Shown here piece after piece: positions 3,849 through 53,661 of a stretch of 55,213 nt of DNA. The stretch is from a virus (Duplodnaviria > Heunggongvirae > Uroviricota > Caudoviricetes). Location: the IMG/VR virus record IMGVR_UViG_2698536646_000013; one strand, given 5' to 3'. Position numbers and translations under genes: made by a program. Numbering within the stretch: position 1 is the stretch's first letter; the number at the start of each line of letters is the position of its first letter. The notes beneath the pieces are model-generated. The model saw only the letters and a list, made by a program, of their open reading frames with translations. It was not told the DNA's origin and made no database searches.

Positions 3849-5196
3849 AAAGTCATTCTCGAAAAAAAATCTTCTAAAAGTATACTCTGAAAAAATCAAA
3901 GAATCAGGAGCGATTGGCATAGATCGGATTCGCCCATCAAAACTTGATTTGACAATAAAAAATGAGATCACTTTCATTTTTGAAAAGGTTAATTCTGGCA
4001 ATTACAAATTTACAGCATATAAAGAAAAATTAATATCTAAAGGCGCTAACTCTACACCCAGACAGATTTCCATACCAACTGCTAGGGACAGAATTACTCT
4101 TAGAGCTCTCTGTGAATGCCTTACGGAAATATATCCTAAGTCCAGATTAAAACTACCACATACAGTAATTGACTCATTGAAAGAAGCATTAAACAACAGT
4201 CTATATGCTGAATATGCAAAAATAGATCTTAAAAGTTTCTATCCTTCAATTGAACATAAATTGATAATTAATGCAATAAAAAATAAAATTAGAAAAAAAG
4301 AAATTAGACAGTTAATAACATCATCATTAATCGTGCCTACTGTAAGTGGAACCACAGGAAGCAAAGGTATCCCTAATAATACCAGAGGAGTACCTCAGGG
4401 ATTAGCGATATCAAACATTTTAGCTGAAATATCACTATCTAATTTCGATGATGAAATCAATAAAATGCATGACATATGGTACATGCGATACGTTGATGAC
4501 ATTCTTATTTTAACACCAAAATATCAAGCAACAAAAATAGCTTCTCATATCATTGATAAGCTTCAATCATTAAATTTAAACCCACATCCATTAAATGAAG
4601 AGAACTCAAAATCCAAAGTAGGCAGCTTGGATGAAAGTTTCAACTTTTTGGGCTACCACATAAAAAATCGAGAATTATTGATAAAACATGAGAGCATTCT
4701 TAGATTTGAGTCATCCTTAGCAAAAATTTTTACTGCATATAGACACGCTCTACTACAAGCTAAAAATAAGCGCGATAAAGAACGAGCTGTTGCATATTGT
4801 CAGTGGAAACTAAATCTTAGAATTACGGGATGTGTGTTTGAAGGTAAACGATTGGGATGGGTATCGTACTTCTCACAAATAACGTCAACAGCTCAACTTC
4901 GAGCTGTTAATCATACGATCAATAATCTTATCCGCCGATTCGGCCTTTCATCAGAAATAAAACCAAAGTCTTTGATTAAAACTTTCTATGAACTCCGCAG
5001 GGGTAGAGCGGAGACTTTTAAATACATACCTAACTTTGACAATCTACATATATCTCAGAAACGAGAAATTGTTTCTATGTGGATAGGGAAAGAGAATGAA
5101 AAAAAACTTAGCAATAGTGAAATAGAGAGAAAATTTAAATTTAAAATTGCGAAATCAGTAAAAGAGCTTGAAGAGGACATTTCAGGGATATCATAG
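3820..5196 (+). CDS. Reverse transcriptase (retron-type or defence-associated RT)
   Basis: 458 aa with RT motifs PRQISIPTARDRITLRAL, KIDLKSFYPSI, GVPQGLAISNIL, YMRYVDDILIL and FNFLGYHI, plus an ITG motif in the C-terminal thumb-like region. Very AT-rich. Confidence 0.9.
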   Translation: MTMTASRIFKKSFSKKNLLKVYSEKIKESGAIGIDRIRPSKLDLTIKNEITFIFEKVNSGNYKFTAYKEKLISKGANSTPRQISIPTARDRITLRALCECLTEIYPKSRLKLPHTVIDSLKEALNNSLYAEYAKIDLKSFYPSIEHKLIINAIKNKIRKKEIRQLITSSLIVPTVSGTTGSKGIPNNTRGVPQGLAISNILAEISLSNFDDEINKMHDIWYMRYVDDILILTPKYQATKIASHIIDKLQSLNLNPHPLNEENSKSKVGSLDESFNFLGYHIKNRELLIKHESILRFESSLAKIFTAYRHALLQAKNKRDKERAVAYCQWKLNLRITGCVFEGKRLGWVSYFSQITSTAQLRAVNHTINNLIRRFGLSSEIKPKSLIKTFYELRRGRAETFKYIPNFDNLHISQKREIVSMWIGKENEKKLSNSEIERKFKFKIAKSVKELEEDISGIS

Positions 5197-36453: not shown

Positions 36454-36603
36454 TTCTTGCTCCTCAATCCATTAAAATCTCAGCAATAGTAGTTGTTACG
36501 TCCGCCACTGGCTCAGAGCTGACTATCCGCTAAATTTAGCTCAGTGCCGTAGCTGTGTCAGAACAAACCTAAGCCGAAACCGTTTATTACAAAACAATAA
36601 ATA

Positions 36604-37032: not shown

Positions 37033-37620
37033 TTTTCCTCACATATGTCATATAGTAAAGGATTATATATACCGTTGTTTTGGACGCTCAAACAGCGAAT
37101 CAGATCAAATAAAACGCACATTTGTTAACATTTACACAAAGTCTGCGTGGGATATTCTGAAAGAATATCCATAATGTGGAGAGAATCTATTGAAGTGCAT
37201 GGTGCCGGGTGCCTCCCGGTGAACAAAATGTTCGTGATACCTGTCGGCGACAGAAAAGGTTAATGGTATCACCCCACCGCACAGGGGGATTCACCATGCA
37301 GGAGTTTTCTTAGCAAACTCACTGCGCGCCCGGCAACTCCCAACCACATAAAATGCGGAGTTTGTGGCATTTATGCATATAACTCGCAGGAATTATCTTA
37401 AAAAACTGATGTCGATCCGGATTAAAAAGAAGCAGGTCATCATCAGATGACTGGAAAAAAGGAAAACAAAAAATACTCATCATACAGTTTTGATTGCAGG
37501 GATGAGCCTGCTATGCACAATATGCAGAATATAAGCAAGATAAAAATATGCAGGCATATTATTTCGGATCTTGTTATTAACACAACCTTTTTAATAATCA
37601 TTTGGCATACAATAAACCAG

Positions 37621-38906: not shown

Positions 38907-39505
38907 TACGCAAACTCCAGTAGTTGTGCGGCCACATTTTCAACTTCCTCCTGAGAGGAGAATTTACGGAACAGAATCCAGTTCCACAGCACATTCAGTA
39001 CAGATTTATAAACCTGCTGAAACTCGACTTCGTCCATATTCGCAAAAGCGATGGATTTTGCCCGACGCCCACGGCTACCGTCCGGATAAATATGCTCGGT
39101 GTAAAATCCGGCCTGAATGGTTACCCACTCGCGGAAAGCCTCAAACGACTTTAGCAACGCCGTATCCCGGGTTCTACGAGTCGCAACGGTGTTAAGGTAT
39201 TGCTCTGCGGCATCACTCAGGGCTGGCGTGTGTTCCCGACCAACTGATTCGCACAGGTAATCAACGAAACCAGACAGCAGTTCTCGTTCGCGAGGCGTGA
39301 TCGCCCCACCGACCGGAGTCCAGTAATCGAATCCCAGTTGCAGGAGTTTGAAAAAACGCTTGTGGAATGCGTAGTTACGCACACGCTTAAAGTCTGCGTG
39401 TATCCACTCACCTATTTTGATTTGATGCAGAAAATCGCAACTCTCCGGCGTCGCCGGGAGAAGTAAACCAGAAGAGGTTTGTTTGACCAGTTGTATATGC
39501 GCCAT
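38906..39505 (-). CDS. DUF1367-family phage protein
   Basis: 199 aa, MAHIQLVKQTSSGLLLPATPESCDFLHQIKIGEWIHADFK..., a common nin-region protein of lambdoid prophages. Confidence 0.75.
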   Translation of the reverse strand: MAHIQLVKQTSSGLLLPATPESCDFLHQIKIGEWIHADFKRVRNYAFHKRFFKLLQLGFDYWTPVGGAITPRERELLSGFVDYLCESVGREHTPALSDAAEQYLNTVATRRTRDTALLKSFEAFREWVTIQAGFYTEHIYPDGSRGRRAKSIAFANMDEVEFQQVYKSVLNVLWNWILFRKFSSQEEVENVAAQLLEFA

Positions 39506-39785
39506 TTCTCAATCTCTCGATGGCGCAGCGCAGCAGATGCCAGTTGTTCAGGCTGACGAATAAAGTATAAATAAACTGGCTATGGTGTAAAGCCCCACAT
39601 AGCATGAACAAACACTACATATCAAATAGCTGGTACAAGGATAGAAATACGACACTTATTATTAAAAACGATTAGATAAATTACATTTTAATGTTATGCA
39701 AAAGTTCTTTTTTATCATAACATTTCAATAAAAGCATTACAGATGCAATCATCCCGTCATCATCAATTATTTAAGGTGGTTAAAC

Positions 39786-39872
39786 ATGGAAAATAACAAG
39801 TTCGCACATCTCGCTCCTTTTTTATCCGTAATCCTTTTCGCTTGTTGTTTTATATGGGCATTATTTTTATAA
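39786..39872 (+). CDS. Candidate small hydrophobic peptide (28 aa)
   Basis: MENNKFAHLAPFLSVILFACCFIWALFL, strong RBS AAGGTGG 6 nt upstream, in an ~800-bp AT-rich non-coding island. Hand-translated, not in the ORF table. Confidence 0.35.
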   Translation: MENNKFAHLAPFLSVILFACCFIWALFL

Positions 39873-40263
39873 AGTAGCCACATGATAAGTTGCTGGAATC
39901 ATATTTCCCACTCAAGTCATTAACATTTGATAAGATATATCTAAAAGGACGCCTTTACATTATTTATGCGTATATAATTTATTTATATACACAGTAAAGG
40001 TATCCTGGGAAAATATTTATCGTTAAAAAATACATCATAAATAATTAAGCTGAAATTTCAGAACACAACTAATACACACAATAAGGTTCAGTAACAGTAA
40101 TCTATGTGGACTACATCGAGATTTTTTGATTAAACTTTAATAACTTATTCCTAACACACAGAATGCATAAACTAAAAGTAAAACAAATAGTTATACGAAA
40201 AACAACCATATTTATTCTATCTTCTCCTCTAATCAACATATCAATTATGTGTTTCATAACAGC

Positions 40264-40303
40264 TTGACATAACCCTCCAAAAGATGCATTTTTAATGCAT
40301 GTT
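40264..40303 (+). promoter_or_regulatory. Promoter with NsrR-type operator upstream of the yeaR-like gene
   Basis: -35 TTGACA at 40264-40269. AAGATGCATTT-T-TAATGCATGTT at 40281-40303 fits the 11-1-11 NsrR inverted repeat (AAGATGCATTT-N-AAATGCATCTT) at 20 of 22 positions. Confidence 0.5.
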
Positions 40304-40318
40304 TTGGAGGAGGTGGTT

Positions 40319-40657
40319 ATGACACACAAGAGAATTCCTAAAGATTGGGTAATCAAACGCTCAACTCCGTTCTTCACAAAAGAGAACGTACCTTCAGCGT
40401 TATTAACACATCATAATACAGCAGCAGGTGTTTTTGGGCAGTTGTGCGTAATGGAAGGCACTGTAACATATTATGGTTTTACTGATGAGAATGCTACTGA
40501 ACCGGAGATAAAAGTAGTCATTAATGCTGGCGCTTTTGCAACAAGCCCACCACAATACTGGCACCGTGTTGAACTAAGCGATGATGCTCAGTTTAATATT
40601 AACTTTTGGGTCGCTCCAGACTTTTCGGGCGAAAAAGTCTATAGCACCAAAAAATAG
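40319..40657 (+). CDS. YeaR-like protein (DUF1971, TehB-like cupin)
   Basis: 112 aa from MTHKRIPKDW, RBS GGAGGAGGTGG. RSTPFF...AAGVF...LCVMEGTVTYYGF..EP...AGAFA..PPQYWH...FNINFWVAP parallels K-12 YeaR. Confidence 0.85.
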   Translation: MTHKRIPKDWVIKRSTPFFTKENVPSALLTHHNTAAGVFGQLCVMEGTVTYYGFTDENATEPEIKVVINAGAFATSPPQYWHRVELSDDAQFNINFWVAPDFSGEKVYSTKK

Positions 40658-40686
40658 ATGATCATATTAAAAATGCTTTAACAGTC

Positions 40687-40723
40687 AGACCCGGCAGGGC
40701 TATCCCCGACGGGTCTCATTTTT
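40687..40723 (+). terminator. Rho-independent terminator after the yeaR-like gene
   Basis: Stem agacccg / cgggtct with an internal GC-rich loop, followed by CATTTTTG. Confidence 0.6.
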
Positions 40724-41277
40724 GTAAATATATTGGTTCTACATTGACAGGAGACTTCAACCATAAGAAGTAATCTGAATACTTGAGCAATAAATTTACT
40801 TAAGATTAATGAGCGCACCTTGCCGGACAAAGATAAACCAAGGTAACACCTTTTTTCTAGCCAGTATGTAATCAATCAGAAAGCCGCTCCATAAGAACAA
40901 CAGCAAGACAATAAATTGCCATTACAGCCGCAATAGCCAGCGCACATTTGAGAACCAGCACGACAACCCCCTGTATTAGACGCACACCAGTCCTGATAAA
41001 TATGAGGCTGTCTCGTCAGTGATTCAATACAACTATTGGGTATAGTTTCTGTGATTTTATTCTGTAGAAATGGAACACAACAACCAGTCACCACCAGCAC
41101 TTCCTTAAATGCTCTAAGTCAGAAACAAGCCAACATTTTAGTCCGCTTTGAGCGATCTGCAGACATTGCTAGCAGCCTTCTGTGTGAATTCTCAGGGAGC
41201 AGGTCGGCATAGCATCACGTTGAGGCTCTTACCCTACTTGTTCACACCAACCCTAACTCCACAGACTGATTCATAAA

Positions 41278-42279
41278 TTAGTAATCTGCGTGTTTCGCAC
41301 TTTTCAGAAATGCTTTCATATTTTCATTAGGTCGCTCAATTTCGAAGTTACTTCCATATAACTCTTGTAATTTTGGCCATAACTTACTTAATAACCCTCT
41401 CCTGCGATAAAATGGATGTATCCAAACGGTAGATAGGTACGGAGAATTTGCATTTGAATTGTTTATTGTGACCAGCCCAACTAAACATTGTCGATAACCA
41501 CTATTATCCATTGATTGTATTTCTTCGACGAATGGATACGCGATTACATCAGTCCAACCATGATCGGTTGTATCCCATTGCATTCCGTCATGACATTCCT
41601 TCGACTGATAGCGGCGTAAAGCTACACACGCGAGCTTTTGCCAATCTGGAGAATTAATTGTGATCTCTTCATCGTATGACGCGCCTATTGGAGCGGGTAT
41701 TGGTCTGATTAATCCAGCATGGCATTCATCATAGAACTTCATGTTTCCCTCAGAAACGTTGTGTACGTTGGGTTGCTCCATGTGTGCGCCATTCAAAAAT
41801 AGCTCTGATAGTAGTGTATCTACACTGTAATCTTTATTGATTATTGTCGGCTTAGAGTTTTTCTTATTAAGGCCGCGAGTAACGATTTTTTGATCAATGT
41901 TAACAACATGGAATAATCCGTCGGGGAGGCTAGCGAACCACGATGGGGCATCGGACCAGAATAGCATGCCTTTTGTACTTCTTAAGAGTTTAATTAAGTT
42001 AATACAAGCTTCTTCACTAGTCTTGCCGTTGATGCGAAGTATGTTAGGACTAAAGTAATATTCATCCATATCAGGGAATGCAGCTTCGCAAAACTCCTGT
42101 ACATAATTTAGCACCTGGATTCTACAGAGATCATCATAGCTGGTAATAACTAAGGGGGTATCTTCATTACTATTATGATTATCAATAATGCAATCTATAG
42201 CGAGACTTACTGCTTTGCGTATCACTTCAGTTGAATCTAACGACTCTAAAAATTTTGTCTTTCGTGTGCGAATATCCAT
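41278..42279 (-). CDS. Hypothetical protein, possible GNAT-like C-terminus (second gene of AT-rich cargo operon)
   Basis: 333 aa. C-terminal LVGLVTINN...VWIHPFYRRRGLLSKLW loosely resembles GNAT motif A. N-terminal 200 aa have no recognisable family. 15-bp gap to the upstream gene. Confidence 0.7.
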   Translation of the reverse strand: MDIRTRKTKFLESLDSTEVIRKAVSLAIDCIIDNHNSNEDTPLVITSYDDLCRIQVLNYVQEFCEAAFPDMDEYYFSPNILRINGKTSEEACINLIKLLRSTKGMLFWSDAPSWFASLPDGLFHVVNIDQKIVTRGLNKKNSKPTIINKDYSVDTLLSELFLNGAHMEQPNVHNVSEGNMKFYDECHAGLIRPIPAPIGASYDEEITINSPDWQKLACVALRRYQSKECHDGMQWDTTDHGWTDVIAYPFVEEIQSMDNSGYRQCLVGLVTINNSNANSPYLSTVWIHPFYRRRGLLSKLWPKLQELYGSNFEIERPNENMKAFLKSAKHADY

Positions 42280-42294
42280 GTATGACCTGCGCTA

Positions 42295-43317
42295 TTAAAA
42301 TTCATGAATGAACGGTTTGTCATCTGGTTGCAAAATGGTGGTTTTATTCGTTGCTACATTTAAACTGTTGTAGAGCATAATTGCCAGGTTCGATGCATTT
42401 TCAATCAGCGTTTCAAGATCCTGGTCTGTAATCACTACGAGGTTCCCTTCTTTATCCTTTCCACCACGATGCACTAAGTGATTTCGATTGAGGGTTGCCA
42501 ATTCAATAGCTTCTATCGGACAGTCTTTTTGTACTTTTATATCGAATGTAGCTTCATAGCGGTCGATTACCTTTTTAGTGCTATGCCAGCTTGCACTGAT
42601 CAAGTGTTCCTTGATTGACCTGATTAGCTCTCCCCTAATTTTCTCGATGGGTTCACCCTTGAAAGGCAACGCAGCAATATCTTTGCTTACTTTAAATTCA
42701 GTCTTACCTTTTTCTATACAATTGGCTATGTAGACATCATCTTTCTCTATAGAATTAATGAATAGCTCAACATAAAGCGTTTCCAAAGCTGTAATAACAT
42801 TCGTGTAGAGCAAACTAAGCAAGTGGTTTTTTTGCTGTTGTTCAGTTTTATCTTTTGCAAGTTTTTTTATTTTATCGATATTATCAATGAATTTTAAATA
42901 CGGATTACCGGAAGACGTTACAGCGTCGTAGATATCATCATCGTACCAATCATCTATATTATTTGAGTTTCCAGACCAGTCAAAACATTGTGTTTGTAAT
43001 TCATCTACTAATTCCTCAATATACTCAGATTTAACATATTGACCGAAGATGGATTGTAGTTCTTCGCTCGCATCATACGGCCCGCCATATATGTAAGCAT
43101 AGCCACCTTCTCTACTTTCATACGGACAAGCATTTGCCGGATCTTCAAAGTTTTCAAAGAACCAGTTTTTCATTACTTCGAGTTGATCTTTTTTGCTTAT
43201 GTATTTTAAAGATTTTAGTGGAACTTTCTTTCCATTAACCTCGAAAACAATTTTCACGATGTAACGCTCCCTTGTATCAATTGCGCAACTATTATACCAC
43301 AGCGAAATACAGGGCAT
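42295..43317 (-). CDS. Hypothetical protein with HEPN-type RNxxxH motif (first gene of AT-rich cargo operon)
   Basis: 340 aa from MPCISLWYN (ATG 43317, RBS AAGGAGG). C-terminal ...ELATLNRNHLVHRGG... contains R-N-x3-H. AT-rich relative to flanking phage genes. Confidence 0.7.
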   Translation of the reverse strand: MPCISLWYNSCAIDTRERYIVKIVFEVNGKKVPLKSLKYISKKDQLEVMKNWFFENFEDPANACPYESREGGYAYIYGGPYDASEELQSIFGQYVKSEYIEELVDELQTQCFDWSGNSNNIDDWYDDDIYDAVTSSGNPYLKFIDNIDKIKKLAKDKTEQQQKNHLLSLLYTNVITALETLYVELFINSIEKDDVYIANCIEKGKTEFKVSKDIAALPFKGEPIEKIRGELIRSIKEHLISASWHSTKKVIDRYEATFDIKVQKDCPIEAIELATLNRNHLVHRGGKDKEGNLVVITDQDLETLIENASNLAIMLYNSLNVATNKTTILQPDDKPFIHEF

Positions 43318-43455
43318 AACCTGCCTCCTTAAACTAACATACCATGAGCCAGCAATGTCCGCTATTGGCACAAAGCGGACAACCACGCTAGCTCTCCCCT
43401 GTGCCAGAAAAATGTCAATTTACATATGAACTAATGCTCTTTGATCTAGTAACGT

Positions 43456-53472: not shown

Positions 53473-53661
53473 ATGTATAAAATTACCGCCACTATTGAAA
53501 AGGAAGGTGGCACTCCTACTAACTGGACAAGATATTCAAAATCTAAACTAACGAAATCAGAATGCGAAAAAATGCTCTCAGGTAAAAAAGAAGCAGGCGT
53601 TTCCAGAGAGCAGAAAGTAAAACTGATAAATTTTAATTGCGAGAAACTTCAGTCCTCGTGA
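53473..53661 (+). CDS. ydaC: YdaC-like small protein
   Basis: 62 aa MYKITATIEKEGGTPTNWTRYSKSKLTKSECEKMLSGKKEAGVSREQKVKLINFNCEKLQSS, RBS GGAGG. Confidence 0.6.
   Translation: MYKITATIEKEGGTPTNWTRYSKSKLTKSECEKMLSGKKEAGVSREQKVKLINFNCEKLQSS

Follow-up and report, generated by a model that had tools for sequence, protein, structure and literature searches.

A mobile cassette of a Rac-like prophage carries genes for a predicted HEPN ribonuclease and a GNAT-fold protein and may serve in anti-phage defence

Introduction

In the HEPN-MNT (type VII) toxin-antitoxin systems, such as SO_3166/SO_3165 (structure 5yep) or the system of structure 8xdj, a HEPN toxin of about 130 amino acids (aa) has an obligate partner, the MNT nucleotidyltransferase encoded next to it, and the MNT antitoxins AMPylate the HEPN toxins. 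ApeA, the AbiV/AbiJ-type proteins and PrrC/RloC join a regulatory or sensor domain to a HEPN ribonuclease (RNase) within a single polypeptide and are found in prophages and defence islands, and the GNAT-RHH toxins TacT, AtaT and KacT are stand-alone GNAT proteins of about 170 aa with a small RHH antitoxin gene upstream. Here we report on two adjacent genes, termed A and B, in a 55,213-nt stretch of viral DNA of the Caudoviricetes (IMG/VR record IMGVR_UViG_2698536646_000013), hereafter the window, which is a Rac-like prophage integrated at ttcA and equipped with intR, xisR, ralR (together with the RalA small RNA, sRNA), recET, kilR and sieB. A preliminary description made from the DNA letters had regarded the two genes as a two-gene cargo operon. 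The A-B pair is a discrete mobile cassette that occurs in unrelated contexts, a property which that description understated, and the two genes are not an obligate pair, each family occurring mostly on its own.

Like the HEPN-MNT systems, the A-B pair places a HEPN gene beside that of a putative group-transfer enzyme on mobile elements; it differs from them in that B is predicted to combine a GNAT fold with an N-terminal domain private to its family instead of being an MNT nucleotidyltransferase, in that A has 320 aa and an extra N-terminal domain, and in that its linkage to B is not obligate. Most members of family A stand alone, as do the single-gene HEPN defence proteins, whose PADLOC models find no sequence match in A and whose N-terminal domain is different. 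With the GNAT-RHH toxins B shares the GNAT fold and the residence on a mobile element; unlike them it has 333 aa, a private N-terminal domain of 200 aa, a non-canonical motif A and, as sole neighbour in the cassette, A instead of an RHH gene. Morons are autonomous, AT-shifted transcription units that interrupt a series of conserved phage genes, and in this respect the cassette resembles them. By its architecture, protein A is likened to the MAE_18760/MAE_28990 group (e.g., KPK_1764 of Klebsiella pneumoniae 342), in which an N-terminal domain of about 95 aa also precedes a HEPN domain with an Rx4-6H motif; this HEPN/RES-NTD1 plus HEPN architecture, a computational category with gammaproteobacterial examples, was catalogued in silico in 2013 as a predicted toxin of genomic conflict systems, and is linked to ParA/Soj ATPases, whereas A has a GNAT neighbour here (PMC3710099). 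We found no experimental work on this architecture in the searchable literature; a HEPN gene is also known from Gifsy-1 (STM14_3211; PMC9879122).

Cassette boundaries and occurrence

The cassette spans 2,240 bp (41141..43380, minus strand) and comprises, in this order, an L site, a predicted promoter, A, B and an R site. The unit is matched end to end (positions 1-2240 of 41141-43380) on four conjugative or other plasmids and on one phage-plasmid-like replicon; cassette-bearing plasmids include IncF, and a 2.4-kb block is found in 205 of 5,426 complete E. coli genomes (~4%). The flanks are unrelated from copy to copy and belong to unrelated prophages, plasmids and defence islands, where Gabija-like, McrBC-like, DNA methylase, dGTPase-like and UmuDC genes were assigned by eye beside some copies. 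When copies from unrelated contexts are compared, similarity is confined to the stretch that begins ~123 bp upstream of A, exactly at the L site, and ends ~140 bp downstream of B.

The L site (GTCCGCTTTGTGCCAATAGCGGAC; 43357..43380, minus strand) is a 24-nt palindromic sequence with 7-nt inverted arms and a conserved GTGCCA core, and the R site (41141..41164, minus strand; GTCTGCAGATCGCTCAAAGCGGAC in minus-strand reading), likewise of 24 nt, has the same arms (GTCCGCT/AGCGGAC) around a TCGCTC core. Both form the outer 24 nt of imperfect terminal inverted repeats (left, 43348-43380; right, 41141-41173) of 33 nt, that is, the site and nine further bases, and the longest inverted repeat of the region pairs 41128-41173 with 43348-43393 (46 nt at 72% complementarity). 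While such terminal inverted repeats are found in DDE transposons, the target-site duplication and transposase that mark these elements are lacking: no direct repeat was found at 10 independent insertion sites and no transposase within the cassette, one IS110-family gene being noted by eye near one array.

In the window the pair lies between the prophage replication genes and the nin/Q region, the gene order being ydaS/T-like, ydaU, ydaV (ydaU/ydaV-like), DUF1627, DUF977, A, B, DUF1971 (on the other strand) and DUF1367/DUF1364/DUF1133. The insert separates genes that are adjacent in related phages, with a G+C content of 0.39 for the cassette (A 0.36, B 0.39) versus 0.49 in both coding flanks and 0.45 in the whole window, as expected of a moron. 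The cassette is missing from most Rac-like prophages, in which other cargos occupy the same site; in other E. coli strains the same slot, with both sites, holds a 1-kb cargo or a remnant of ~0.24 kb, and in phage Tritos the equivalent slot holds a gene for 445 aa. Among isolated phage genomes of a phage collection, no close homologue of the cassette proteins was found. In the Qin prophage of K-12 (locus L156), R-like (4016-4039) and L-like (5007-5030) sites bracket flxA-ydfV beside relBE-hokD.

Several further observations concern individual copies. In Qin, the annotated 'ydfV' contains the L-like site, which precedes relB by ~110 bp, and on a K. variicola plasmid (locus L161) the same relB-side flank is joined to the A-B cassette. 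Of the two loci L165 and L166 (E. coli O78 strain 3; strain MB56), one has IS2 just upstream of A, and the other has two ISSen4 copies, the first 73 nt ahead of A and the second in the A-B gap; the open reading frames (ORFs) of both genes are intact. A 3.3-kb contig labelled Collinsella sp. metagenome-assembled genome (locus L002, JAIHTM010000277.1) contains both genes and both boundary sites of the E. coli cassette at 100% identity to the window; it probably comes from an Enterobacterial genome and was mis-binned with an Actinomycetota assembly.

Gene A and its product

Both ORFs are on the minus strand and co-oriented, with a gap of exactly 15 nt, and they are not chance reading frames: A has 121 homologues in a large protein collection, B has 66, and the 2.4-kb block recurs in the E. 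coli genomes counted above. The upstream ORF, with its stop at 42295, offers three candidate starts (GTG 43386, ATG 43317 and GTG 43257). The preliminary description had taken the second one, giving 340 aa behind a strong AAGGAGG ribosome-binding site; this motif does precede ATG 43317 (43330-43324), but we rejected the 340-aa reading since homologues of A begin with MK(I/V)VF, which corresponds to GTG 43257 in the window, the RefSeq product (WP_014639476.1) has 320 aa, and three of 13 diverged cassettes have ATA in place of ATG 43317. None of the 13 has lost the start at 43257 (GTG in 12, ATG in locus L131), and a promoter-like element lies between the two starts. From the homologue starts, the RefSeq length, the loss of ATG 43317 and this element, we place gene A at 42295..43257 (minus strand; 320 aa, GTG start), with a Shine-Dalgarno sequence AAGGGAG at 43273-43267. 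The earlier left edge of the locus, 43317, consequently falls inside the promoter/5' region of a larger functional unit, 41141-43380, and the AAGGAGG motif likewise belongs to this conserved region.

The element between the starts is a putative extended -10 element, TGgTATAAT (43291..43299, minus strand), whose promoter role is suggested by conservation: of 13 diverged cassettes, 12 have TGnTA(T/C)AAT at a distance of 34-42 nt ahead of the A start codon, and the element is still present in derivatives that have lost gene A. A generic promoter and terminator scan returned counts not above those of shuffled sequence, and it did not list the element because a good -35 element is absent. The scan placed no intrinsic terminator at the 3' end of the cassette, and tRNA and Rfam scans gave no match in or beside it. 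The 3' non-coding part (41165..41277, minus strand) is conserved, with a 46-bp insertion in some copies; this conserved ~46-bp insertion downstream of B is present in loci L003, L123, L125, L128, L129, L130 and L142 and absent from the window. Long-range pairing of the 3' non-coding region with the A-B intergenic region, which form an inverted repeat, was considered and rejected because no compensatory changes were seen.

Sequence comparison and modelling support the assignment of A to the HEPN superfamily. An N-terminal HEPN/RES-NTD1 domain (~residues 1-95) is followed by a C-terminal HEPN domain, and the modelled protein contains the four-helix up-and-down bundle of the HEPN fold. The predicted catalytic motif R258-N-H-L-V-H263 (RNHLVH; 42469..42486, minus strand, translation verified) is followed by R264, and R258, H263 and R264 are invariant across 87 aligned homologues, down to 26% identity, as is an N-terminal block, WF..NFEDP....PY.S.EGGY.YI.GGPYDA. 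In this set 32 of 87 homologues match Pfam PF18735 (HEPN_RiboL-PSP) at E up to 1e-3 (best 7e-11), the window protein having no match at E up to 1, and 64 match PF18870 (HEPN_RES_NTD1), for which the window protein scores 22.2 bits (E 1.9e-4) versus a gathering threshold of 27.4 bits. Among the structures closest to A are two HEPN toxins from HEPN-MNT systems (5yep, 7ae2) and the AMPylated HEPN toxin 8xdj; a sequence search of the PDB with A gave no match. In a set with one genome per species, 352 relatives of A are spread over many bacterial phyla.

Gene B and its product

Gene B (41278..42279, minus strand) encodes 333 aa, with an N-terminal domain (~1-205) and a C-terminal domain for which sequence and model support a GNAT fold. 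In the model, the domain ends right after helix alpha-4, and the segment IHPFYRRRGLL (41389..41421, minus strand) would form strand beta-4 and the start of helix alpha-3 in the motif-A region. In GNAT proteins motif A, Q/R-x-x-G-x-G/A, is the loop that binds the pyrophosphate of acetyl-CoA. Protein B departs from this pattern with R-R-R-G-L-L: the first glycine is R/K in many members, the last position is L/M, and position 294, usually glycine, is variable, whereas H288, P289 and R292 are invariant in the family. Pfam Acetyltransf_1 is matched by 44 of 53 family members (E up to 0.5, best 6e-6), and the window protein reaches 19.9 bits for a threshold of 20.7.

A profile of residues 1-205 run against 1.84 billion representative proteins returned 22 matches, all in the B family, which argues that the N-terminal domain is private to it; fold searches with B returned GNAT matches only, and neither the profile nor the fold searches found the domain in other architectures. 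The sequence search of the PDB gave chance-level matches. NCBIfam and PHROGs supply a functional name for neither A nor B, and PHROGs lists both as of unknown function.

Much of the preliminary description is borne out by these results: two co-oriented genes 15 bp apart, the second of 333 aa (ORF 42279..41278); AT-richness relative to the neighbours; a location between the replication genes (ydaU/ydaV-like, DUF1627 and DUF977 upstream) and the Q region (DUF1367, DUF1364 and DUF1133 downstream); an R-N-x3-H HEPN motif (42486-42469) whose R and H are conserved among homologues; a weak GNAT-like IHPFYRRRGLL (41421-41389); and a cargo nature, neither protein belonging to a replication or nin family. 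The profile searches that it had proposed gave HEPN and GNAT family matches among the homologues and no PADLOC match, and the conservation of the gene pair, also proposed as a check, holds within one Enterobacterales/Aeromonas clade and is replaced by solo genes elsewhere.

Linkage of A and B

The two families mostly occur singly and are joined in that clade only; their lineages appear to have been joined once, since distant relatives of each are solo. Within the clade the association is tight. Where the upstream sequence suffices, B copies with 73% identity or more are nearly all preceded by A (78-100% identity) at the same spacing, so that the pair and its fixed 15-nt spacer have outlasted a divergence of A to 78-84% and of B to 73% identity; conservation of the A-B intergenic region is tight as well. 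The exceptions are A-deleted cassettes (loci L101, L126 and L102), which keep the L site, the promoter element, the last 60-80 nt of A, and B; they represent two independent internal deletions and show that loss of A is tolerated. No intact A without B was seen inside an L/R cassette, in a search biased by the fact that most copies were found via B, and on the metagenome contig L134 B is apparently disrupted beside an intact A, where a sequencing error is possible.

Outside the clade, 80 loci of family A revealed no conserved partner gene; A lies beside integrase, transposase, SIR2, HerA or restriction genes in some of them and beside housekeeping genes in others. The solo A neighbourhood at loci L004 and L158 is a chromosomal housekeeping region. 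A B copy of 62% identity sits solo in a conjugative element, and more distant copies adjoin lineage-specific genes only, one of them for an AAA_13/PDC-S06 protein with a PrrC-like ATPase region. In that case (locus L145, 5881-9411) a solo B of 46% identity and the 754-aa AAA_13/PDC-S06 protein, whose ATPase region matches PrrC, share one L/R-bounded cassette; the C-terminal R-x3-E...H pattern of the 754-aa protein may resemble the PrrC/RloC nuclease site.

Sites and cargos of the L/R framework

The boundary sites are not peculiar to this cassette. We counted 130 L- or R-type sites in 1.89 Mb of retrieved loci and essentially none in shuffled controls. In a separate tally, 72 distinct L sites and 73 distinct R sites were found. 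In L, arms and core reach at least 88% conservation, and at least 93% at most positions, and site positions 9 and 16 co-vary, a pattern that fits a hairpin or a symmetric protein-binding site; only by analogy, the site might be read as 9-bp arms and a 6-bp spacer like the core sites of tyrosine recombinases. An exact-pattern scan of viral contigs for L gave at least 120 stretches, and 80 of these loci were analysed for L...R units. They contain 49 such units with at least 34 distinct cargos of 0.6-4.2 kb, the A-B cassette being one, and 17 of the 49, with six different cargos, adjoin a DUF977 gene. Among the 38 cargo proteins are PD-T7-1 and PD-T7-5, with two members each (E 7e-157 for PD-T7-1), as well as DarT with DarG, and further ones belong to several PADLOC candidate systems or have TIR, HNH, RelA_SpoT or pPIWI-associated nuclease domains; about one third of the sampled cargos match models of known or candidate defence systems. 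For PD-T7-1, which occurs in both prophages and defence islands, experimental validation has been published (PMC9519451).

Neighbouring cassettes are linked by R-spacer-L junctions, the spacer being 18 nt long in 13 of 20 distinct junctions, and most 18-nt spacers share a conserved sequence near CTTCAGCTCAGTTACCTG. Cassettes and junctions of this kind were noted at the window and at loci L129, L123, L125, L101 and L168-L247. The cargos of integron cassettes and pdif (XerCD) modules are flanked by short palindromic sites, form head-to-tail arrays and leave no target-site duplication. The L/R cassettes share these three features; they differ in their 24-nt sites of two types in inverted relation and in the 18-nt linker, and the sites are unlike dif. 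A GTTRRRY core is absent from L, R and the 18-nt linker, no dedicated attC model having been run, and no integron integrase was adjacent in the arrays inspected. Neither the A-B pair nor the L/R sequences are described in the searchable literature, outside which the L/R framework may bear another name, and literature queries on HEPN plus GNAT defence, the RefSeq accessions of A and B and lambdoid hotspots returned nothing relevant.

Other features of the window

A second AT-rich stretch (39500-41140; G+C 0.36, down to 0.29 at ~39600-40200) separates the cassette from the DUF1367 gene; it includes a DUF1971/TehB-like gene in opposite orientation (40295-40657) and ~700 bp in which no convincing ORF was seen. 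At 36500-36523 lies a third, degenerate L-like site, GTCCGCCACTGGCTCAGAGCTGAC, possibly a boundary in decay or else a coincidental match. On the minus strand, two Rfam matches exceeded the gathering score: the sRNA STnc100 (37143-37329) and RalA (53479-53657), the antitoxin sRNA of the type I system RalR/RalA.

Discussion

The occurrence of the same gene pair in prophages, plasmids and defence islands has led us to wonder what it does for its carriers. We favour, with a probability of about 0.5, the reading that the cassette is a mobile anti-phage module of the abortive-infection type, or a toxin-antitoxin-like module, which the Rac-like prophage carries for its host and whose effector is a predicted HEPN RNase. 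This appears the most likely explanation because the slot and the cassette framework elsewhere carry proven anti-phage genes: the slot beside DUF977 is variable, with at least six other cargos in other prophages, the equivalent slot of Qin adjoins relBE-hokD, and the L/R framework transports PD-T7-1, PD-T7-5 and DarTG. Also in favour are the HEPN fold and invariant Rx4H motif of A, the earlier prediction that its architecture is that of a conflict-system toxin, the GNAT fold of B, the spread of the pair as one unit, the cassette that a solo B shares with the PDC-S06 protein, and the tolerated loss of A. It is tempting to hypothesize that A dimerises, so that two R258-x4-H263 motifs, one from the single HEPN domain of each subunit, would form a metal-independent RNase site; the N-terminal HEPN/RES-NTD1 domain might keep A inactive or sense a trigger, and once activated A could cut host and/or phage RNA and halt phage growth. 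B would then tune or neutralise A by acylating either A or the target of A; alternatively, it may be an independent second cargo gene that joined A once and has been co-travelling since.

A number of points weigh against the defence reading. It rests on structural and contextual evidence for both proteins, and both window proteins score just under the Pfam gathering thresholds. With PADLOC-DB v2.0.0, the best matches of A were short, unrelated and at E of at least 0.01, and B had no match. Given that its motif A is without the conserved glycine and its fold stops at alpha-4, B may not be a conventional acetyl-CoA enzyme. Each gene also does without the other in many lineages: the 352 relatives of A across many phyla have no conserved neighbour, a solo A of 76% identity (loci L004 and L158, Aeromonas) lies between a CxxCxxCC gene and sucD in the sucCD neighbourhood, where L/R sites are absent, and family B under 62% identity never adjoins A. 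Finally, the L/R cargos also comprise apparently metabolic ones (NUDIX, HAD, glyoxalase, deaminase), which makes membership of the framework suggestive and not diagnostic.

How the two genes relate to each other is where the competing explanations part. An enzymatic toxin-antitoxin pair like those of type VII, in which A would be the HEPN RNase toxin and B an acylating antitoxin that stabilises mobile elements and perhaps confers abortive infection, would agree with the structural matches of A to HEPN-MNT toxins (5yep, 7ae2) and to the AMPylated toxin 8xdj, with the tightly conserved intergenic region, with the position of the slot next to relBE-hokD in Qin-like prophages and beside relB on a plasmid, and with the two independent deletions that removed A and kept B, no L/R cassette with an intact A and no B having been seen. 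We nevertheless consider a pair of this kind unlikely: relatives of A are found without B in hundreds of species, one of them at 76% identity, which suggests that A is not lethal alone or is controlled by its own N-terminal domain; B occurs without A; the search for B-less cassettes was biased; and contig L134 has a seemingly disrupted B next to an intact A, unless this is a sequencing error. The independent phyletic distributions of the two families would suit another view, that two unrelated single-gene cargos were joined once by chance and have since been co-transcribed and hitch-hiking with no functional link. Other L/R cassettes indeed hold two or three unrelated genes, e.g., NUDIX plus HAD, and B of another lineage shares its cassette with the PDC-S06 protein. 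A neutral link, however, predicts break-ups both ways, and loss of A only was observed; moreover, the pair and its exact spacer were kept through ~20-27% protein divergence and many transfers, and we regard this view, too, as improbable.

A role outside defence, either in lysogenic conversion or counter-defence, with B acetylating a host or small-molecule substrate and A acting as a non-catalytic nucleotide binder, or as an ordinary function of the nin region, seems to us very unlikely. GNAT proteins are very versatile, some HEPN domains are non-catalytic, and some L/R cargos look metabolic, all of which would suit such a role; on the other side, the predicted catalytic R and H of A are invariant, the cassette is missing from most Rac-like prophages, which hold other cargos at the same site, it is also carried by plasmids and non-phage islands, and the isolated phage genomes of the phage collection hold no close homologue. 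The anti-phage or toxin-antitoxin-like module thus remains the reading that we prefer.

The L/R framework may be more novel than the A-B pair itself, A having the architecture of a known computational category and B belonging to a small uncharacterised family. A bolder and still doubtful proposal is that L, R and the R-18 nt-L junction constitute an undescribed cassette-exchange system, integron-like or akin to recombinase-mediated cassette exchange at heterospecific sites, which in Enterobacterales and their relatives would move PD-T7-1, PD-T7-5, DarTG and the HEPN-GNAT pair among lambdoid prophages, plasmids and defence islands, and within which A-B would be a new enzymatic toxin-antitoxin or defence pair, the GNAT protein controlling the HEPN RNase. 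The sites raise the question of whether an enzyme or short-homology recombination, such as that of the prophage RecET, is behind the cassette swaps, and the 24-nt L/R motif is a simple sequence handle by which cargo cassettes of prophages and islands can be sought. Protection against phages, if conferred by the cassette, would bring into the defence repertoire a further HEPN family with 352 relatives in species-representative genomes and a presence in ~4% of complete E. coli genomes, and it would bear on whether HEPN RNases can be controlled by GNAT proteins in the way in which nucleotidyltransferases control them in type VII systems.

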